DNA from: an uncultured bacterium
Lineage (GTDB): Bacteria > SAR324 > NAC60-12
NCBI GenBank assembly: GCA_964010765.1
Contig: CAXGMD010000038.1
Location: 1 to 32,544 of the forward strand
Length of the DNA: 32,544 nucleotides
Direction of reading: 5' to 3'
Shown here: positions 6,077 through 16,956 of the stretch, piece after piece
How positions within the stretch are numbered: the stretch's first letter is position 1
Layout: each line of letters begins with the position of its first letter
Translations under genes and position numbers: made by a program
The notes under the pieces: generated by a model
What the model saw: the letters and a program-made list of their open reading frames with translations, nothing else
What the model was told of the DNA's origin: nothing
Databases searched by the model: none

Positions 6077-6808
6077 ATGCTACTGCGAGTTGACAAGCCA
6101 CTGACACGTCGGGTTCAGGAAGCTCTGCTGCGGCTGATCCGTGAACGCAATTGCCAACCTGGTGAAAAGGTACCGACGGAAGCAGAGTTGGGACAATTGT
6201 TTGGGGTTGGACGTTCAACGCTTAGAGAAGCCATCGGCAACCTTGTCGAGCAAGGAATCCTGCAAAAATCCCACGGTCGAGGAACGTTCCTAAGGCAGCT
6301 CCCAATCGTTCTCGAAAGTGGCTTGGAGGAGTTGACCAGTGTTACGGAGCACATCCGAAAAGTAGGTGCCAAGCCTTCAACGCAGAGAATCCAGGTGGAA
6401 AAGATTCCTGCTGATGAGCGACTCAGTCAAAAACTTCAGTTGCCCCAGGGGACAAGCTGTTACTGGATTGAAAGAGTCCGCTTCGCAGACGACGTACCAG
6501 CTGCCTATTGCATTGACGTCATCCCTGAGAATCTGTTGCCGGACGGACTCAAAGAGCAGGTCTTTCGGGATTCACTCTTTGAGCTACTGAGCAAAAGCGG
6601 ACATCTGGTTTCACATACGGAGAGTTACATCACCCCGACCCTTTTGACACAGCAGGAACTACCAGAATTGAATAGTGAGTCTGCGTATTTTCTACTGTTT
6701 GAAGAAGTAAACTACGACGTCAGTGGCTTCCCAGTCTGCTACAGCAACGACTACTACAGCAGTCAGGTTTTTGAATTCAAGATCATCCGTAAGCGTCCCT
6801 TGGACTGA
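6077..6808 (+). CDS. GntR family regulator, HutC subfamily (UTRA domain)
   Basis: wHTH PGEKVPTEAELGQLFGVGRSTLREAI...HGRGTF plus a UTRA-like C-terminus (IERVRFADDVP); GAGGGAG RBS. Confidence 0.92.
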   Translation: MLLRVDKPLTRRVQEALLRLIRERNCQPGEKVPTEAELGQLFGVGRSTLREAIGNLVEQGILQKSHGRGTFLRQLPIVLESGLEELTSVTEHIRKVGAKPSTQRIQVEKIPADERLSQKLQLPQGTSCYWIERVRFADDVPAAYCIDVIPENLLPDGLKEQVFRDSLFELLSKSGHLVSHTESYITPTLLTQQELPELNSESAYFLLFEEVNYDVSGFPVCYSNDYYSSQVFEFKIIRKRPLD

Positions 6809-6840
6809 TTCTTAAACCCATTTAATCAGAGGAAGAAATC

Positions 6841-8097
6841 ATGGAATACCGTCAGCTCAGCCCGGAAACGGTCCCGGGATTTCTGAAGGACATCTCCAGT
6901 GTGCAACAGATCTTTTCGGATCTGGATGATCTAGAAGTTGAGGAGGTAGGGGACGGCAACCTGAACTTTGTCTACAAAGTAAGACAGCGAAAGAATCCCG
7001 AACAAACGGTAGTAATCAAGCAGGCCGTGCCTTTCTTGCGAATTGTTGGCGAATCCTGGCCTCTTTCTCGGACCCGTATGAACTTTGAGATTCAGGCACT
7101 GGAGCACCACACGAAGTATTGCCCCCAGCATGTCCCCGAAATCTTTTACTCTTCCACAGACATGTCGCTGGTGGTGATGCAAAACCTGAATCGGCATGCA
7201 GTCCTTCGTGGTGAAATGATCTTGGGGAAGATCTTCCCAAAACTGGCTGAGCATATTTCATCCTTTCTGGCGAACACCCTCTTCCCTACAACAGACTGGT
7301 GTCTGACCGGGGGTGAGAAAAAAGCGATGGTGGACAGGTTCATTAACCCGGAACTCTGCAAGATCACTGAAGATTTTGTGCTGACTAATCCGTACGAAGA
7401 CCATGAGACAAATGTCTACCACGATGAAGTCACCCAGGCAGACAAAGACTATCTTCAGCAGGATTCCCAACTGAAGGTTGCAGTTGCCGAAATGAAATAT
7501 GCCTTCATGAACCACAGTGAGGCGCTGCTTCACGGGGATCTACATATCGGCAGTATCATGGCCAATGAGGAGGAAACCTACGTAATTGATCCTGAGTTCG
7601 CTTTCTTTGGTCCTATCGGCTTTGATGTGGGGGCTTTCATTGGCAATCTATTCCTCGCATACTATGCGCACGAAGTACGTCAAAAGATGCTGGGGCGTGA
7701 GCCTTTTGAGTATCGCAATTGGATTTTACGGACAGCGGAGGAGACTTGGAATCAATTCCAGGCAAAGTTTGAAGTAAATTGGGTTGCGCACGAACAAGAT
7801 GCTCCCAGTAGCTACTGGAACTATCAAGAAGGACACATTGGCTTCGCCTTGCAGCGTCAGCGATTCTTACGCCACATTTTTGAAGACACCATTGGCTTTG
7901 CTGCCTGCAAAATGATGCGGCGCATTTACGGACTTGCCAAAGTGGCTGACATCGCTGAGATCCCTGATTTAAAAGCTCGCTTGGAGGTGGAACGTAATGT
8001 CATGCGCATGGCTAAAGTGATGGTTCAACAACGCAGCTCCTTCCGTTCCATTGAGGAACTATCGGCGTTAGCCCAAGAAATATCTCCCTTACGCTGA
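6841..8097 (+). CDS. mtnK: S-methyl-5-thioribose kinase (may also act on 5-deoxyribose)
   Basis: EVGDGNLNFVY, VIKQAVP, WPL, NPELCKITED, LLHGDLH.GS, IDPEFAF.GP, MMRRI.G.A.VAD. Confidence 0.93.
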   Translation: MEYRQLSPETVPGFLKDISSVQQIFSDLDDLEVEEVGDGNLNFVYKVRQRKNPEQTVVIKQAVPFLRIVGESWPLSRTRMNFEIQALEHHTKYCPQHVPEIFYSSTDMSLVVMQNLNRHAVLRGEMILGKIFPKLAEHISSFLANTLFPTTDWCLTGGEKKAMVDRFINPELCKITEDFVLTNPYEDHETNVYHDEVTQADKDYLQQDSQLKVAVAEMKYAFMNHSEALLHGDLHIGSIMANEEETYVIDPEFAFFGPIGFDVGAFIGNLFLAYYAHEVRQKMLGREPFEYRNWILRTAEETWNQFQAKFEVNWVAHEQDAPSSYWNYQEGHIGFALQRQRFLRHIFEDTIGFAACKMMRRIYGLAKVADIAEIPDLKARLEVERNVMRMAKVMVQQRSSFRSIEELSALAQEISPLR

Positions 8098-8103
8098 AGT
8101 TTC

Positions 8104-9618
8104 GTGAATCCAATCGTTGAAGTACAACAAATCAGCAAATCCTTTGGAGCAACCCAGGCGCTGCGGGGTGTCTCCTTCTCCTTTTTTTCAGGGGAGATCT
8201 TCGCCTTGGTGGGAGCGAATGGGGCCGGCAAATCCACTCTGATCAAGATCATCTGTGGCTACTATGAGGATTACGAAGGTGAAATTCGTATTGAGGGCCA
8301 ACGTGTTCGGTTTCACAGTCCTCAAGACTCCTTTCGTCAGGGCATTCGCACGGTTCACCAGATTATCGATCAAGGTGTAGTGCCCACAATGAGTATTGCT
8401 GAAAACTTAGCTCTCAACGAGTTGCTGGACCCAGCAACCGGATTGCGTTACCGTCGTCAACACATTCGAACTCGTGCTCAGGAAATCGCAGAACCGATGG
8501 GCCTGACGTTTACTAATTGGGATCTTCCTGTCTCCGATTTGTCCCAAAGTGATCGTCAGTTGATCAGCATCGCCCGCTCTCTGGTTGGTGAACCAAAGTT
8601 ACTGATCTTGGATGAACCGACCTCCTCATTGAGTACCCGTGAGACAGACCGACTGTTTGATAAGCTAAACCAGTTACGCTCGCAAGGAGTTGGGATTGTC
8701 TATGTTTCTCATCGACTCCACGAGGTTGAGTTGCTGGCTGACCGTGCCGGTGTGGTTCGAGATGGGCTGAAAAGCGCTGATCTGACTCGTCCAGTGAAAT
8801 CCCAAAATTTGGTTCGTGCGATGGTAGGTGAAATAGATACAATTTCTCACGACCATCCACATGCTGTTCAAGCTGGAAAAGTTCGACTGGAGTTGAAGGA
8901 TCTTATTGTGCGTCCAGGAGACCCACCATTAAATCTCCAGCTGAGGGCTGGAGAAATTGTTGGTTTGACAGGTTTGATTGGAGCCGGAAAGTCAGAGTTG
9001 GCAGAGATTCTCTATGGCATGCGAGAGCCCGTTTCTGGAGAAATATTTCTGGATGACCAGCCCTTGAAACCCGAATCGATTTCCTCTGCGATCGACAAGG
9101 GGGTCCATCTTGTTCCAGAAGATCGCAGCAACCGAGCGGTGATTCCCCAGTTCAGTGTGAATCAGAATCTTTCCTTACCTTTTCTTAGAAGTTTTTGTCG
9201 GTTTGCGTTGCTGCAACCGAGAAAAGAGCAGCAGGAAGCCGATCGGATGGTGCGAGACCTAGGAGTCAAGTGCCAAGGCATACACGCCCTGATTGGCAGT
9301 CTCTCAGGAGGTAATCAACAGAAGGTTGTAGTGGCTCGCTGGCTTCAACGAAAATTCCGAGTCCTCTTATTGGATGAGCCTTTCCAAGGTGTGGACATCA
9401 AGTCCCGGCATGACATTATTCAATACCTACGAGATCAACTACATGATGAAGTGGTGCTGGTACTCGCTGCAGATCTCGATGAAATTCTGGAAGTGGCTGA
9501 TCGAGTTCTGGTGCTCAACCGGGGACGTCTGATGGGAGAACAAAACCGTAATTCAATTGACCGAACACAGCTCCTTGACTGGATCTCTACCACCGAAACA
9601 AAATTCGCCCATGCCTGA
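8104..9618 (+). CDS. Sugar ABC transporter ATP-binding protein (CUT2, two NBDs)
   Basis: GTG start; GANGAGKST, LILDEPT, VPEDR, LSGGNQQK, LLLDEP. Confidence 0.93.
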   Translation: MNPIVEVQQISKSFGATQALRGVSFSFFSGEIFALVGANGAGKSTLIKIICGYYEDYEGEIRIEGQRVRFHSPQDSFRQGIRTVHQIIDQGVVPTMSIAENLALNELLDPATGLRYRRQHIRTRAQEIAEPMGLTFTNWDLPVSDLSQSDRQLISIARSLVGEPKLLILDEPTSSLSTRETDRLFDKLNQLRSQGVGIVYVSHRLHEVELLADRAGVVRDGLKSADLTRPVKSQNLVRAMVGEIDTISHDHPHAVQAGKVRLELKDLIVRPGDPPLNLQLRAGEIVGLTGLIGAGKSELAEILYGMREPVSGEIFLDDQPLKPESISSAIDKGVHLVPEDRSNRAVIPQFSVNQNLSLPFLRSFCRFALLQPRKEQQEADRMVRDLGVKCQGIHALIGSLSGGNQQKVVVARWLQRKFRVLLLDEPFQGVDIKSRHDIIQYLRDQLHDEVVLVLAADLDEILEVADRVLVLNRGRLMGEQNRNSIDRTQLLDWISTTETKFAHA

Positions 9619-10633
9619 AGCTACAAACACCGAAAAAGGTGGAACATCCAATAATTGGGATGCCAAGCAATTTGCCATTCGCTATGGATTTTTGATTGTG
9701 ATGGCTGCCTTGTACCTGCTGTTTAGTATCTTGGAACCTGCATTTTTAACCTGGAGTAATCAGTTTTCCATTCTCTTGGGCATCGCGATTTATGGCATTC
9801 TCGCACTTGGTGTCACTTTCACCCTAGTTGTCGATGGCTTGGATCTATCGATTGGCTCTGTCGCTGCGCTGAGTGTGATGATCTCCTCTTACTGCATGGT
9901 TGTGCTCGAGCAGGGTGCCGTCATTAGCGTGATAATTTGTCTGCTGCTGGGCGCCTTGGTTGGACTCCTAAACGGTCTATTGATTGTTAAGATGAAGATC
10001 CCTGATTTGCTAACAACACTGGGGATGATGTTTTTGATTCAAGGACTTCAGCTGATCCCCTCTGCAGGACGGACTATCAGTGAAGGGATGCTGATGGAGG
10101 ACGGGGAGGAAGCACTGGGGTTTTTTGATCCGAGCTTCCTTTATCTTGGACAGGGCCGACTTTTCGGGGTAATTCCAATTCCAGTGATTGTCATGCTGGT
10201 GATCGCTCTCCTCGTTTACATTGTCCTGGACCATACCCGTTGGGGTCGAGTGATGTACGCCATTGGTGGAAACCCAGAAGCCACTCGACTGGCTGGAGCA
10301 CCTGTGAATTTATATCGGATCATGGCTTACGTGATCAGCGGAACGATTGCTTCGATCGGTGGTGTTCTCCTGGTAGCCCGAGTTGGAGTCGGGGACATCA
10401 CCAGCGGTACTGGTTTGCTATTGGATGCTGTCGGGGCTGCCTTGATTGGCTTTGCAGTTTTTGGAGTTCGACGACCAAATCCTTTTGGCACTCTTGTCGG
10501 AGCCATCTTCATTGGGGTTCTATTGAGCGGCTTAACGATGTTGAGCCTGCCCTACTACACTCAGGATTTCATCAAAGGCGGGGTGCTTGTCCTCTCGCTG
10601 ATGTTTACTTTTGCGCTGGCTAAGCGCTCTTAG
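9611..10633 (+). CDS. Sugar ABC transporter permease (RbsC family)
   Basis: GLDLSIGS, TRWGRVMYAIGGNPEATRLAG. ATG at 9611 overlaps the upstream stop and is preferred to the track's TTG at 9557. Confidence 0.92.
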   Translation: MPEATNTEKGGTSNNWDAKQFAIRYGFLIVMAALYLLFSILEPAFLTWSNQFSILLGIAIYGILALGVTFTLVVDGLDLSIGSVAALSVMISSYCMVVLEQGAVISVIICLLLGALVGLLNGLLIVKMKIPDLLTTLGMMFLIQGLQLIPSAGRTISEGMLMEDGEEALGFFDPSFLYLGQGRLFGVIPIPVIVMLVIALLVYIVLDHTRWGRVMYAIGGNPEATRLAGAPVNLYRIMAYVISGTIASIGGVLLVARVGVGDITSGTGLLLDAVGAALIGFAVFGVRRPNPFGTLVGAIFIGVLLSGLTMLSLPYYTQDFIKGGVLVLSLMFTFALAKRS

Positions 10634-10701
10634 GTCTTCCCTTGTGGAAGTTCACGCAGAGATTTTTTCTCTGCCTCATTTCCTTTCTCATGGAGATTCA
10701 G

Positions 10702-11763
10702 ATGAAAAAGATGCTGTCCGCAGCTTGTTCCCTGTTATTCCTGTTGATCACAACCACTACGCTTTGGGCCCAGATCGCAGGGGCTCCTCCACCATTTGAT
10801 GGATCTAAAAAACTCAAAGTTGCCTTGGTCCAGCTTTTGGTGGAAGGCGAATTCATGCAGACCTTCCGCTCTGGAGCCAAACGCCAGGCTGAGATGCTGG
10901 GTATGGAATTCCTGGCATTGAATACGAAAAACGCCGATAACAAAGCCCAGGCTGATGCCGTAGATCGTGCGATCAGTCTTGGAGTGGATGCAATCCTTCT
11001 GAGTCACGGACGACCGGAGACGATGCGAGAGCCCATCCAGCGTGCCTTGGCGAAAGGGATCAAAGTAGTCGCATTCGACATCTACTTTGAAGATCTGACC
11101 AATATCGTTACCCACATGGCCCAAGATGATGTCCTACTGGGTCAAATGGCACTGGATGCCCTGGTCGCCGATTTCAACGGCCAAGCAAACGTTGGGTATA
11201 TCTACATTCCCGGTGTTCTACCACTGGACAAGCGAGATACCAGCTTCACCAAGGTCAAGCAGGAATACCCAGGTATCAAGGAAATCGCCCGTCATGGCTC
11301 CCTCGAGTCACCGATCTCCACCAAGAATGCTGATCAGGTGAAGGCTACGATGCAGGCAAACCGGAATATCAACGCCTACTTTGCACCTTATGATGAGTTT
11401 GCAAAAGGGGTTGTGATCGCCCTGCGTGAACTGAACATGAGTGACAAGGTGAAAGTCTACAGTGCTGACATCAGCACCGTTGATATTCGGCAGATGACCC
11501 AGGATGGAAGCCCTTGGGCTGCGACTGCCGCTACGAACCCAGCTGCTATTGGAGCTACCGGGATTCGAGCTTTGGCCATGAAACTGACCGGAGAATGGCT
11601 GCCACAAGAAATCACGATTCCACCTATGCTCTTCACCCAGAAAATGCTGCGTGACAACAACGTTCAACGGTTCAATGATCTCTTTGAGAAATTCCCAGAG
11701 TTCAATACGGTTGATCGTGCCAGCGCCACTTGGATTCCGAGAGATTCCTCAGGCAAGTTCTAA
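10702..11763 (+). CDS. Sugar ABC transporter substrate-binding protein (PBP type 1), candidate methylthioribose/5-deoxyribose binder
   Basis: GGAG RBS at 10692, ATG at 10702, signal peptide MKKMLSAACSLLFLLITTTTLWA; GVDAILL and GIKVVAFD motifs. The ligand is inferred only from the mtnK/mtnA context. Confidence 0.88.
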   Translation: MKKMLSAACSLLFLLITTTTLWAQIAGAPPPFDGSKKLKVALVQLLVEGEFMQTFRSGAKRQAEMLGMEFLALNTKNADNKAQADAVDRAISLGVDAILLSHGRPETMREPIQRALAKGIKVVAFDIYFEDLTNIVTHMAQDDVLLGQMALDALVADFNGQANVGYIYIPGVLPLDKRDTSFTKVKQEYPGIKEIARHGSLESPISTKNADQVKATMQANRNINAYFAPYDEFAKGVVIALRELNMSDKVKVYSADISTVDIRQMTQDGSPWAATAATNPAAIGATGIRALAMKLTGEWLPQEITIPPMLFTQKMLRDNNVQRFNDLFEKFPEFNTVDRASATWIPRDSSGKF

Positions 11764-11784
11764 CCTCCTATTTTTGAGAACTCT

Positions 11785-12825
11785 ATGAGCCTCCCGTTGA
11801 GCCTTCAATGGCAAGAAGATGAGCTGATCATGTTGGATCAGACGCGTCTACCCATCGAAGAAGTGATGTTGCGACCAAAGACGGTCGAAGCTGTCTTTGA
11901 AGCCATCAAAATGCTTCGGGTACGGGGGGCCCCTGCGATTGGGATTGCCGGTGCTTATGGACTGGTCATCGCCATGCAGCACAAGCGCAACCTCACTTGG
12001 CCTGAGTTTCTCCTGGAAGCAGAACGCCAAGCAGATTATCTCAACAGCGCCCGACCCACTGCGGTGAATCTAAGTTGGGCACTTAAGCGAATGATTGGGA
12101 AATTAAATGATCAGCACGACAGCGAAACTGCTTTTCAGGTCTTGTTAGAGGAAGCCAAGGTCATTCATGAAGAAGATCGAAAACTCTGCCGGGGCATTGG
12201 TAAAAATGGACTCTCGCTCATTAAAGAGGGGATGGGAATCCTGACTCATTGCAATGCTGGTGGATTAGCAACCAGTGAGCTTGGAACTGCACTGGCCCCA
12301 ATGTATCTGGCCCATGAAAAAGGCATCAGTTTCCGAGTTTATTCGGATGAAACCAGACCACTGCTCCAGGGCTCTCGACTGACAGCTTGGGAACTACAGA
12401 GAAGTGGGATTGATGTCACCACGATTTGCGACAACATGGCTGCCGTGATGATGCAAGAAGGCAAGATCGATATGGTGATCGTGGGTACCGATCGGGTTGC
12501 CGCTAACGGGGACGTTGCCAACAAGATTGGCACCTTCAACGTTGCGATACTGGCGAACTATTTCAAAATTCCTTTTTACGTGGCCTGTCCAGCGTCCACT
12601 ATTGATCTGATCACCCCAACTGGTGCCGAGATTGTGATTGAAGAACGAGCCCCTGAAGAGGTGACAGCTTTTGGAGAACGTAGAACCGCACCAATCGATA
12701 TCAAAGTAAGAAATCCCGCCTTCGACGTCACACCTGCAAATCTAGTCACTGGCATCATTACCGAACAGACGATTCTTCGAGCACCATATGCTGAGTCGAT
12801 TCGTCAGACCTACGGTAATGCATGA
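11785..12825 (+). CDS. mtnA: S-methyl-5-thioribose-1-phosphate isomerase
   Basis: LDQTRLP, VRGAPAIG, ARPTAVNL, LTHCNAGGLAT, DETRPLLQGSRLT, GDVANKIGT, NPAFDVTP. Confidence 0.96.
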   Translation: MSLPLSLQWQEDELIMLDQTRLPIEEVMLRPKTVEAVFEAIKMLRVRGAPAIGIAGAYGLVIAMQHKRNLTWPEFLLEAERQADYLNSARPTAVNLSWALKRMIGKLNDQHDSETAFQVLLEEAKVIHEEDRKLCRGIGKNGLSLIKEGMGILTHCNAGGLATSELGTALAPMYLAHEKGISFRVYSDETRPLLQGSRLTAWELQRSGIDVTTICDNMAAVMMQEGKIDMVIVGTDRVAANGDVANKIGTFNVAILANYFKIPFYVACPASTIDLITPTGAEIVIEERAPEEVTAFGERRTAPIDIKVRNPAFDVTPANLVTGIITEQTILRAPYAESIRQTYGNA

Positions 12826-12856
12826 ATAGTCCATATCCCACGTTTTGTTTTTGATA

Positions 12857-12897
12857 GGTGCTGAATTTTGTGAAAGCAAATCAGCACTTCTTCTTTC
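12857..12897 (+). terminator. Putative intrinsic terminator/hairpin between mtnA and the RLP gene
   Basis: GTGCTGA (12858-12864) pairs with TCAGCAC (12881-12887), with an inner TTTG/CAAA stem, followed by TTCTTCTTT. Confidence 0.5.
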
Positions 12898-12921
12898 CTA
12901 TCCATTTTCATAGCAACAAGC

Positions 12922-14040
12922 ATGAACACCCGCTTTTGGGTTGAATATCACCTGACCGGTTCTCCTAAAGAAACCGAAGACATGGCCAAGGGAATCGCTA
13001 TTGAACAAAGTGCCGGTCTACCACTCCAGCTTGTTGCTTCTGGATTTTTGCAGGATGAAATTCTTGGACGTGTAGAAGACCTCAAAGTCCTGAATGATCA
13101 AACTTCTTACGTTAAAATTAGCTACCTGACTGAATCAATTGGCAATGAATTGACACAACTGATGAATGTCCTTTACGGAAACATCAGTCTCTGGAAAGGA
13201 ATCAAAGTAATTGGTATTGAATTACCCGATCCGTTGAAAGCATACTTCGCAGGTCCGCGCTTTGGCATCCGTGGTCTTCGAGACAGACTGCGGGCCCCAG
13301 TGGGGCCACTGTTGATGGCTCAGGTCAAACCAATGGGAAGGGGCACCCATGAATTAGCAGAGTTGGCTTATCGATTTGCCATAGGAGGTATAGATCTGAT
13401 CATCGAAGATCACATGGTCACCGACCAGACCTGGAGCCATTTCAGAGACAGAGTGTTTGCCATCAGCCAAGCTGTTCAGCGCGCTAACTCAAAGACCAAG
13501 GGCAATTGTGTTTATGTGCCTAATGTCACTTCTTCACCAGAAGAACTCCTGCTGAGAGCAGACTGGGCGTCCCGATATGGAGCTGGTGCTTTGCTCGTTT
13601 CACCGGGATTGACAGGGTTCGATAGTCTTCAAAGGCTTAGCCAGAATAGACGCCCAGGACTTCCTATCATTGCACATCCCACCTTCCTTGGTTCGCTGAT
13701 GCTGAGTCCAAATCAGGGCATCGTCCCAGGTTTATTGCTTGGAACCATATTTCGTCTAGCTGGTGCAGATTGTAGCCTTCTTCCTTATGCAGGGGGACGT
13801 TTCGGTTTCCATGAAGAAGACTGTCAATCAGTGATTGAACACTGCCAGCAAGCTGACTTACTGCTGAAGCGTTCGATGCCTGCTTTGGGAGGAGGAATTA
13901 CTTTGGAGAACCTACCATCTCTACATAAGAAATATGGAAATGATGTCATCTATCTCCTTGGTGGGCAGCTTTATGGAATTTCGGCTGATCTGCCGGAGAA
14001 TGTGCGCCAATTACGAAGAGTACTTGAAAGAGAGACGTGA
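12922..14040 (+). CDS. RuBisCO-like protein (form IV, resembles DeepYkr/MTRu-1P isomerase type) with an atypical active site
   Basis: IAIEQS, LYGNISL, GPRFGIRGLR, PLL...KPMG, GGIDLIIEDH, YVPNVT, IIAHP, RLAGAD, GGRF, PALGGG, LLGG; located after mtnK/mtnA. Confidence 0.88.
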   Translation: MNTRFWVEYHLTGSPKETEDMAKGIAIEQSAGLPLQLVASGFLQDEILGRVEDLKVLNDQTSYVKISYLTESIGNELTQLMNVLYGNISLWKGIKVIGIELPDPLKAYFAGPRFGIRGLRDRLRAPVGPLLMAQVKPMGRGTHELAELAYRFAIGGIDLIIEDHMVTDQTWSHFRDRVFAISQAVQRANSKTKGNCVYVPNVTSSPEELLLRADWASRYGAGALLVSPGLTGFDSLQRLSQNRRPGLPIIAHPTFLGSLMLSPNQGIVPGLLLGTIFRLAGADCSLLPYAGGRFGFHEEDCQSVIEHCQQADLLLKRSMPALGGGITLENLPSLHKKYGNDVIYLLGGQLYGISADLPENVRQLRRVLERET

Positions 14041-14578
14041 AATGGAATGCTTGCCTAGCTTTGTTCCTAGGCTTTATCTGGGGTAGTACCGTAGCCTGAA
14101 CTACTGAAGATGGTGAATTCCAGCTTTTCGATTCTGATGGCTATCGTATTCAATCCTAATGTTCGGCTACTCCAGCTCACTGAGATGGTGTACAGACTCT
14201 CACTACGGGATCTGCCTAGGAACTTTGTTTGAGACAGTCTGTCCATTTTGTGAATGTGCAACCCGTACTTTGGAGTCAGGGATTTTTTCTTCCAGATCAA
14301 CCTCTAACAATCATTCCAGGAAGTGACTTGCTACACAATGTTGGTTTCGGGCCAATGGAAGAACTCTGGGCAGACTATCTCCAACACTACGCTCAGTAGT
14401 GGGATGGAATGATCATCTTTTATTGCACTCCTGACTGCTGGCATTCATGGAATACAGCTAAAAGAGTTGCTGAGAAGTGGCCTGATTTGAAGGTGGGGTG
14501 GTTTCGAGAGGGTATGATGCTTGGCAGGAAAAGGGATATCCAGTGGAGTTCCTTCAACAACCTCTTCCAATGCCATGA
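14037..14578 (+). pseudogene. Degraded rhodanese-like 'PQQ-dependent catabolism-associated CXXCW motif' protein
   Basis: From GTG at 14037: MKWNACLALFLGFIWGSTVA*TTEDGEFQLFDSDGYRIQS*CSATPAH*DGVQTLTT...IPGSDLLHNVGFG...*WDGMIIFYCTPDCWHSWNTAKR...WFREG, then a frameshift to DAWQEKGYP...PMP* (TGA at 14576-14578). Stops at 14097, 14157, 14181, 14217 and 14397. Confidence 0.75.
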
Positions 14579-14612
14579 TCTCCCTCAGGAGAAACAGGCG
14601 AGGATAAAGGTT

Positions 14613-16956
<2,344 letters not shown>

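Follow-up and report, generated by a model that had tools for sequence, protein, structure and literature searches.

RESULTS

A RuBisCO-like protein gene without the active-site lysine

We analyzed a 32,544-nucleotide stretch of DNA from an uncultured SAR324 bacterium (contig CAXGMD010000038.1, hereafter the window), in which positions 12922..14040 of the forward strand encode a RuBisCO-like protein (RLP) of 372 amino acids with an ATG start. The gene, whose allele we call type A, is the last in an operon that also encodes the methylthioribose kinase MtnK, the isomerase MtnA, and a ribose-type ABC importer. Bases 13381-13413 translate as I-G-G-I-D-L-I-I-E-D-H; codon 161 within this motif (13402..13404, +) is ATC and encodes Ile, and codon 162 is GAA, encoding Glu162. 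Codon 161 falls at the alignment position of RuBisCO K201, a Lys that undergoes carbamylation in RuBisCO and in RLPs. This carbamylated Lys is a metal ligand of RuBisCO and of the Geobacillus enolase, in both of which its carbamate serves as that ligand and as the presumed base.

A gapless phmmer alignment to PDB sequences places GGIDLIIEDH over GGVDLIKDDH (3qfw) and GGVDLVKDDE (4nas, 2oek), with Ile161 opposite the Lys of all three proteins (K173 in 2oek numbering). Reading of the sequence found no further Lys between K136 and K191 of the window RLP, so the alignment cannot be shifted to bring another Lys onto the 201 position. The initial annotation had described a full-length open reading frame (ORF) with the motif IEDH and Ile at the K201 equivalent, and had named a misplaced Lys as one way in which this could be wrong; the ORF, the codons, and the gapless alignment bear it out. 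In a MAFFT alignment of 270 rows, column 161 holds Lys in 259 rows, Ile in 7, Met in 1, Thr in 1, and a gap in 2.

Much of the remaining active site is intact. The window RLP keeps N87 (GNIS), K136 (KPMG), H252 (AHP), R278, and the Gly loops, all in columns that are highly conserved in the 270-row alignment; N87, K136, and H252 are the N123, K175, and H294 equivalents that, together with the Gly motifs, had earlier been listed as retained. D163 is also kept, and position 164 (the E204 position) is His, as in 245 of the 270 relatives. Glu162 is replaced by Asp in a 99%-identical allele (L094). A second active-site residue is gone: codon 32 (13015..13017, +) encodes Gly in place of Glu32, turning EQTVE into EQSAG.

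Family and fold assignments place the protein among the RLPs. Residues 115-352 match Pfam PF00016 (RuBisCO_large) at 76.1 bits against a cut-off of 30.1. The best NCBIfam models are those of the MtnW enolase, both below cut-off (NF007095, 197.8 versus 409; TIGR03332, 157 versus 513.6), and the bona fide RuBisCO models are missed (NF003252, 111.7 versus 438; TIGR03326, 106 versus 497; NF010002, 39.3 versus 489). The best solved relative among all PDB sequences is 3qfw (E 2.3e-57, residues 4-360). It is also the best structural match in Foldseek to an AlphaFold2 model of the window RLP (pLDDT 95.1, pTM 0.93), with TM scores of 0.90/0.95, a root mean square deviation of 1.6 Å, and 31% identity; Foldseek ranks 1-50, made up of RLPs and RuBisCOs, have query-normalized TM scores of 0.88-0.93. 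As modeled, then, the protein folds as a normal RLP, with an N-terminal alpha/beta domain and a C-terminal barrel. What it lacks is the Lys that marks the superfamily, replaced by Ile161.

The lysine is missing from an entire clade

A word-index search returned five close clusters at 95, 89, 63, 60, and 60% identity, with the next >100 proteins at 41-47%. When the six closest sequences were aligned with 13 others, the six carried IIEDH, IMDEH, IIDDH, or IIDEH, whereas all 13 others carried [IV]KDDH. The five clusters, defined at 90% identity, have 100, 22, 3, 2, and 89 members; reading at most 40 members of each gave 51 rows including the window. The site is covered in 44 of these rows and lacks Lys in every one, the residue being Ile or Met (25 DLIIEDH, 12 DLIIDEH, 3 DLIMDEH, 2 DVIIDDH, and 2 DLVIEDH). 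Glu162 is not conserved across the clade (IEDH, IDDH, IDEH, MDEH); the residue is Asp also in P0004. A HMMER scan of 1.84 billion representatives yielded 1644 homologues at E ≤0.001, of which P0005 (60%) alone exceeds 46% identity to the window RLP, so the clade amounts to a single 50% cluster.

The clade was found only in one genus. In the whole order, 4 of the 64 species genomes have a close homologue (E ≤1e-30), and all four belong to the same genus; this order-wide search added no further DNA of type A, P0003, or P0004, and a single metagenome scan yielded 5 loci. The public names of cluster members read Deltaproteobacteria, Pseudomonadota, or simply "bacterium," and public sources label the proteins "ribulose-bisphosphate carboxylase large chain." The rows of the 270 without Lys are eight clade rows (those named are the window, P0001-P0005, and the fragment P0261) and the unrelated degenerate singletons P0256 and P0258. 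P0256 (370 amino acids) has Ile at the Lys site, Gly at the K175 equivalent, and Asp at the H294 equivalent; P0258 (545 amino acids) has Thr at the Lys site and Tyr at the H294 equivalent. Judged by these residues, sporadic degenerate RLPs exist outside the clade. Many distant homologues (e.g., P0125, P0133, P0138, P0155, and P0173) are fused forms of 520-785 amino acids with the RLP part at one end.

We considered whether the Ile could stem from faulty assembly or sequencing, or from a mutation private to one strain in an otherwise ordinary KDDH-type RLP. Nothing was found in favor of either, and we regard both as vanishingly improbable. ATC is two base changes away from AAA and AAG. The window stretch is present in 13 DNA runs and 6 RNA-library runs, and codon 161 is spanned by contigs from four runs (three metatranscriptome, one DNA), with no variant there among the differences listed for them (7 lesser-supported differences lie outside that listing). 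The exact or near-exact protein occurs on dozens of contigs from many sources, 25 type A rows share the same motif, and Ile or Met occupies the site throughout the clade. The initial annotation had judged a single sequencing error unlikely and had allowed that close relatives might show KDDH; the first judgment holds, and the clade members that cover the site are Lys-less without exception.

A single loss on the stem, followed by further residue losses

To place the loss, we used an IQ-TREE tree of 63 hand-chosen rows, limited to 340-450 amino acids so that fused and fragmentary matches were excluded. One branch, with SH-aLRT support of 100 and a stem of 0.70 changes per site, separates the eight Lys-less rows from all others. 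This stem is nested in a starred group (98) whose other members are the Lys-type RLP of G001, a genome of the same genus, and two further Lys-type proteins; it follows that a Lys-bearing ancestor lost the residue a single time, along the stem. Measured from that node, the path to the window RLP is ~1.2, versus 0.5-0.6 for the sisters, and by these branch lengths the Lys-less lineage evolved about twice as fast afterwards.

We then compared 10 Lys-less rows with 81 Lys-type rows at positions that are ≥85% conserved in the latter. All 10 Lys-less rows differ at T30 (to Ser), E32 (to Gly, Cys, or Asn), K161 (to Ile or Met), G165, and P322. E32 and K161 are each 100% invariant in the 81 Lys-type rows, and both are absent from 10/10 Lys-less rows, none of which therefore has a complete Deep-Ykr-type active site. 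Further losses are confined to parts of the clade. P0003 and a second allele, type B, have Gly for K136, Glu for D163, Ser/Glu for G291/G292, Ser for G325, and Arg for G348, and type B also has Gln for H252; type A, the window allele, retains K136, D163, H252, G291/G292, G325, and G348. Conversely, 16 positions hold a residue that never varies within the clade and is seldom found in relatives. Eight of these positions fall within 205-245, on two outer helices plus a loop at the barrel bottom, a patch that may be a lead to a new interface.

Intact copies evolve under constraint

The ratio of nonsynonymous to synonymous substitution rates (dN/dS, or omega) could be estimated for type B. Three intact metagenome copies gave nonsynonymous-to-synonymous counts of 8:17, 14:23, and 13:16 over 858:258 sites, rejecting neutrality (binomial p 2.4e-6, 4.3e-7, and 1.9e-4). 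For the same allele, omega between intact copies is 0-0.23; it is 0.20-0.34 when an intact copy is compared with a pseudogene and 0.69-0.78 when two pseudogenes are compared, and a value of 2.3 between two pieces from G005 rests on very few changes. There is too little type A DNA for dN/dS, so we used a protein-level test on 24 full-length proteins that are 89-100% identical. Varying sites number 1 of 80 (I160V) among positions that are ≥80% conserved in Lys-type relatives and kept in the window, 29 of 123 among intermediate positions, and 32 of 152 among weakly conserved ones (Fisher p 6.6e-6 for 1/80 versus 32/152). Intact copies thus appear to be under purifying selection, type B by dN/dS and type A by the protein-level test. 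A dN/dS near 1, which the initial annotation had named as evidence against its proposal, is not what intact type B copies display.

Two old alleles exchanged as a cassette

Types A and B differ over a sharply bounded stretch. The divergent cassette (12826..13972, +) comprises the 96-bp spacer upstream of the RLP gene and RLP codons 1 to ~350; there the two types have ~60% nucleotide identity, against ~97% in the flanks. Identity falls from ~97% to ~60% at the MtnA stop (~12816-12825) and exceeds 90% again ~60 nt before the RLP stop. The common 3′ end (13973..14072, +), consisting of the last ~22 codons and a hairpin, is 92-97% identical between A and B in loci L096 and L095; in L097, bin 13981-14040 is 93% identical and bin 14041-14100, with the hairpin, 72%.

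Silent sites follow the same boundaries. Within identical codon families, four-fold sites are identical at 36/100 in RLP codons 1-350, compared with 155/171 in MtnA and 176/195 in PobA; in codons 351-372, 8 of 10 four-fold sites are identical between the alleles. When the window is compared with the type B loci, ten genes of the flanks have 95-100% protein identity and synonymous divergence (dS) of 0.05-0.58, while the RLP has 61% protein identity, a dN of 0.30, and an NG86 dS >2, a saturated and hence unreliable number. Both types are at host GC content. Contigs in three of the four runs (X13, X14, and X15) diverge from the window exactly at 12816 and 13972, and the loose contig end at 13972 encodes type B; the two alleles thus coexist within samples.

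Because synonymous sites are saturated, faster protein evolution in place does not account for the divergence; rather, the gene body appears to have been swapped by homologous recombination. We prefer a course of events in which one crossover fell inside the RLP gene's own 3′ end, and by their silent divergence the alleles long predate the genomes in which they now sit. Sorting of paralogues from a tandem pair was also considered and rejected, as there is no two-copy locus in the window, in 5 metagenome loci, or in 8 genus genomes. It is disfavored too by the last ~22 codons, which type B has in common with type A, whereas the C termini of P0003 and P0004 have diverged in proportion. Flank divergence is itself mosaic. 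Against L097, window 6077-8097 has dS of 0.58 (GntR) and 0.37 (MtnK), versus 0.09-0.18 in the ABC genes, MtnA, PobA, and beyond, which suggests further recombination tracts in the locus.

Operon and pathway context

The operon is headed by a GntR/HutC-type regulator gene (6077..6808, +), followed by those for the methylthioribose kinase MtnK (6841..8097, +; TIGR01767, 530.1 bits versus a cut-off of 275) and the ribose-type ABC importer (8104..11763, +), whose ATPase (8104-9618), permease (9557-10633), and binding protein (10642-11763) presumably import methylthioribose or 5-deoxyribose. Next comes the gene for MtnA, the S-methyl-5-thioribose-1-phosphate isomerase (11785..12825, +; TIGR00512, 438.9 bits versus 279), which would supply methylthioribulose-1-phosphate (MTRu-1P). 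The RLP gene starts 96 bp after the end of the MtnA gene on the same strand, and the arrangement is syntenic in 5/5 metagenome loci. After the RLP stop lies a terminator-like hairpin (14053-14072, +), and contigs of three metatranscriptome libraries cover the RLP gene.

No Rfam match was found in 12700-14700 at E ≤1, and an RNA element or tRNA in the conserved downstream stretch was rejected, leaving only the hairpin. The ~570 bp from the RLP terminator to pobA (14041-14612) contain no persuasive gene candidate (Pfam matches neither of two ORFs, 77 and 71 amino acids long), and their identity between strains is 72-98% (85-98% in most 60-nt bins), versus ~97% in the coding flanks. These may be remains of lost genes.

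A PF00016 search of the window genome (G000; 3.86 Mb, 266 contigs, 92.4% complete) found no second gene of the family. We therefore rejected a hetero-oligomer with a second RLP, and with it the suggestion in the initial annotation of a partner subunit for a KDDH-type RLP. In the same incomplete genome there is no MtnB over cut-off (best 52.7 bits versus 137), and neither MtnC nor acireductone dioxygenase (ARD/MtnD) was found, so canonical methionine salvage, whether Bacillus-type or classical, was rejected as an explanation.

In the G001 locus (L099), the operon runs in the order GntR, MtnK, ABC importer, MtnA, transketolase-like protein, Lys-type RLP, and FucA-like aldolase. Its 736-amino-acid transketolase/DXS-like gene lies between MtnA and the Lys-type RLP, with the aldolase gene next (8899-12971 of G001:C3). 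The window operon lacks both the transketolase-like gene and the FucA-like aldolase, and the window genome has no orthologue of the former. A FucA-like aldolase 69% identical to that of the G001 operon is encoded on another contig, in an unrelated sugar-transport cluster (L111, G000:C21, 5692-8556), beside a glycerol-1-phosphate-dehydrogenase-like gene, a haloacid dehalogenase (HAD) phosphatase, and a sugar ABC transporter. This aldolase is a candidate for cleaving the product of MtnA, a step known from the dihydroxyacetone phosphate (DHAP) shunt. Within 8 kb of 80 Lys-type relatives in other phyla, we found MtnA at 12 loci, MtnK at 9, and a transketolase-like gene at 9, the last just upstream of the RLP. 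This looks like an RLP-plus-transketolase route for methylthio- or deoxy-pentulose phosphates that is seemingly undescribed.

The Deep-Ykr RLP of Rhodospirillum rubrum (Rru_A1998) is reported to isomerize MTRu-1P, the MtnA product, to methylthioxylulose-5-phosphate (MTXu-5P) in the methylthioadenosine (MTA)-isoprenoid shunt (PMC4958253). The operon context suggests that the Lys-bearing ancestor of the clade carried out this isomerization or something similar, and that the window lineage has since lost the enzymes that consumed the ancestral RLP's product.

The gene has been lost repeatedly within the genus

Among eight other species genomes of the genus, seven have a syntenic MtnA gene, which is intact in all seven; in the eighth (G007, ~80% complete), searches for MtnA, the RLP, and the MetE-like gene described below found none of the three. 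The RLP gene is intact in G003 (type B) and of Lys type in G001. It is a pseudogene on a type B background in G005, with in-frame stops and 2- and 4-nt deletions, an 83-amino-acid stub with stops in G002, G004, and G006, and a type-A-like stub of ~37 codons in G008, left by a deletion of ~1.1 kb. The gene is thus broken or deleted in five of the seven syntenic sister genomes, and the metagenome locus L098 is another type B pseudogene. What appeared to be two pseudogene copies in G005 proved to be one locus split over two contigs. On this pattern there were at least three independent inactivations, affecting both allele backgrounds.

Neighboring genes have decayed as well. In G002, G004, and G006, all RLP-less, a deletion that joins ABC ATPase codon ~126 to binding-protein codon ~296 (L101, G002:C325, 8094-8644; also L007-L009) removes the importer and leaves MtnK and MtnA intact. 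A MetE-like gene (Meth_synt_2, PRK06520 type) lies two genes downstream of the window RLP, at 15847-16956 (−). It is a pseudogene in G005:C133 (3 stops and a frameshift) and in G002:C325, G004:C92, and G006:C162 (4-9 stops), where the RLP is broken, and intact in G000, G003, and also G008 (C94), which lost the RLP. The MetE-like gene and the RLP may have decayed together in two of the three loss events, as far as a few closely related genomes can tell.

We considered whether the window RLP is itself a functionless relic, its ancestral pathway broken and its transketolase-like partner lost, that persists under residual constraint (for example, against misfolded expressed protein) or for want of time to decay. 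Several observations fit this idea: the inactivations, which struck type A (G008) as well as type B (G005) backgrounds; the stepwise falling away of catalytic residues across the clade; the clade's root-to-tip path, about twice that of its sisters; and a tally of 8 nonsynonymous and 2 synonymous changes among recent type A differences. On the other side, sequences have diverged to ~60% identity since the Lys was lost with their reading frames open, in five 90% clusters totaling 216 member sequences; these clusters include partial members (full-length sequences among the 51 rows number 24 for type A and 10 for type B), and broken DNA copies exist (L098, G005). Intact copies also have omega far below that between true pseudogenes, with neutrality rejected, and type A substitutions strongly avoid conserved sites. 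Taken together, these results make a functionless relic unlikely. The related proposal of the initial annotation, a gene in early decay, is not supported for this copy, whose Ile is fixed in an open-frame clade that has diverged to ~60% identity and whose intact alleles show purifying selection; across the genus, decay is real.

DISCUSSION

A proposed pseudoenzyme in a methylthioribose operon

The explanation we favor, with belief and doubt about evenly balanced, is that the window RLP is a pseudoenzyme: it would descend from a Deep-Ykr-like RLP, have lost catalysis, and be retained, though often lost, for a noncatalytic binding or partner role. Its ancestor would have acted downstream of MtnK and MtnA on MTRu-1P. 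On the stem of the small clade, the carbamate Lys and the invariant N-domain Glu were replaced, which would have abolished the Mg/carbamate enolization chemistry of the family; going by the enzymology of the family, a hydrophobic residue in place of the Lys, combined with loss of the invariant Glu, should bring that chemistry to an end. The normal RLP fold would have been kept, with type A retaining the rest of the sugar-phosphate pocket, and purifying selection would retain the protein at the end of an operon for methylthioribose uptake, phosphorylation, and isomerization. Its most likely role would be binding without turnover, either to sense or sequester a sugar phosphate or to serve a protein partner. 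This role would be dispensable, in that sister species lost the gene repeatedly, and the gene body would have passed between lineages as a cassette by homologous recombination. Type B occupies the same operon slot without the K175 and H294 equivalents and yet is constrained, so a function common to both alleles is unlikely to be RuBisCO-type catalysis. The initial annotation had left several interpretations side by side; its noncatalytic, ligand-binding option is the one we favor, and the whole is supported in part.

One rival reading, also among the options of the initial annotation, is an enzyme that works without a carbamate, at least in type A, either through general acid-base chemistry or with only Asp, Glu, and His to hold a metal, acting on MTRu-1P or 5-deoxyribulose-1-phosphate. 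Such an enzyme would explain why the 24 type A proteins do not vary at K136, D163, H164, H252, R278, or the Gly loops and why substitutions spare sites conserved in the ancestors. A place right behind MtnA suits a consumer of the MtnA product, and with no MtnB over cut-off, MtnC, or MtnD in the genome, something else must take that product. However, the FucA-like aldolase elsewhere in the genome could do so, and MtnK and MtnA persist in five RLP-less genomes. The carbamate, metal ligand and presumed base in RuBisCO and the Geobacillus enolase, has given way to a hydrophobic Ile or Met that offers no carboxylate, and the conserved Glu32 is lost too. Lengthening of Asp to Glu beside the lost Lys could compensate, but Glu162 is Asp in the 99%-identical allele and in P0004. 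Finally, type B and P0003, which are exchangeable in the slot, lack K136, and type B, though constrained, also lacks H252. We consider a carbamate-independent enzyme quite unlikely.

Some observations nevertheless weigh against a constrained pseudoenzyme. The loss of catalysis is argued from the known chemistry of RuBisCO and solved RLPs, and in the 24 type A sequences the equivalents of K175, D203, H294, and R295 and all Gly loops are unchanged, as they would be in an active enzyme. Three of the four allele types lengthen one acidic residue beside the lost Lys (IEDH, IDEH, MDEH), which could reflect a remodeled metal site. As to selection, the protein-level test is not significant for type B (10 proteins; 3/72 versus 14/152, p 0.28). 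Compared with the window RLP, an X14 RNA-library contig carries 6 nonsynonymous and 2 synonymous changes and L094 carries 2 and 0, whereas MtnA on the X14 contig has 5 and 11 (Fisher p 0.08, or 0.04 with L094 pooled); recent type A changes thus hint at relaxed constraint, in small counts. Coverage in RNA libraries also has to be read with care, since RNA-library contigs can contain DNA.

Significance

To our knowledge, the carbamylated Lys is treated as the sole indispensable residue of RuBisCO and every characterized RLP. A long-lived Lys-less clade under selection is therefore a natural experiment on the RuBisCO fold without its metal-carbamate center, whether the outcome is binding only or new chemistry. 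A bolder claim, which we advance tentatively and consider doubtful, is that the clade is a natural lineage of pseudoenzymes, the first for the RuBisCO superfamily. In such a lineage carbamate/Mg chemistry would have been abandoned, and the protein would act as a sugar-phosphate sensor or as a partner in the methylthioribose operon, with old alleles kept by balancing or niche-specific selection as a recombination-shuffled cassette. We found no literature pairing "RuBisCO-like protein" with "pseudoenzyme," in a search that lay outside the main RLP reviews and mechanism papers, which may already tabulate a Lys-less RLP.

SAR324 is an abundant ocean lineage, and such proteins are counted as RLPs in surveys (PMC8364033). 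The same pangenome paper places type IV RLP in surface ecotypes, and its passages on the protein do not discuss the active site (PMC8364033). In the Global Ocean Sampling (GOS) protein-family paper, 6 of 19 RuBisCO active-site residues are listed as having low conservation among ocean homologues, a list that does not include K201 (PMC1821046). For annotation, our results mean that Lys-less proteins should not pass for working methionine-salvage enzymes. The locus is also a clean natural example, from an uncultured marine bacterium, of cassette-like allele replacement with sharp breakpoints and of stepwise operon decay.

Comparison with known systems

The closest solved relative, the Rhodopseudomonas palustris RLP 3qfw, resembles the window RLP in length (~370-380 amino acids), in the GNxS motif (N123 equivalent), and in His at the E204 position. 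It differs in reading GGVDLIKDDH where the window has GGIDLIIEDH, and its PDB title gives no function. We take 3qfw to belong to the Deep-Ykr class. Rru_A1998 of R. rubrum, likewise a Deep-Ykr RLP, is comparable in that both proteins stand in a pathway fed by methylthioribose-1-phosphate isomerase; the window RLP lacks both the Lys and Glu32, and its tentative placement in this class follows from its match to 3qfw. The R. rubrum-type isomerization is the likely function of the clade's Lys-bearing ancestors and of its Lys-type sisters, themselves uncharacterized.

The MtnW/YkrW enolases of methionine salvage (Geobacillus 2oek, Bacillus 2zvi; NF007095, TIGR03332) have the same fold and supply the best NCBIfam matches. 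Unlike the window RLP, they have the Lys; they read FGKLS (2oek, 4nas), with Lys at the N123 position, where the window has YGNIS, the window protein scores far below their cut-offs, and its genome has no MtnB over cut-off to make the enolase substrate. The Chlorobium tepidum RLP (1tel, 1ykw) is a good structural match (TM 0.91/0.80), although it belongs to a different RLP class at 26% identity. It retains the Lys, and we know of no established catalytic reaction for it. It is the nearest precedent for a possibly nonenzymatic RLP.

Within the genus, the Lys-type RLP of G001 (L099:11109-12227) has 45% identity to the window RLP and the same length of 372 amino acids, and its gene stands behind the same GntR, MtnK, ABC importer, and MtnA genes. 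It differs in carrying GGVDIIKDDH and EQTVE, in being flanked by the transketolase-like gene and the FucA-like aldolase, and in lying in a GC-rich locus, with a GC content at third codon positions (GC3) of 0.75 versus 0.42.

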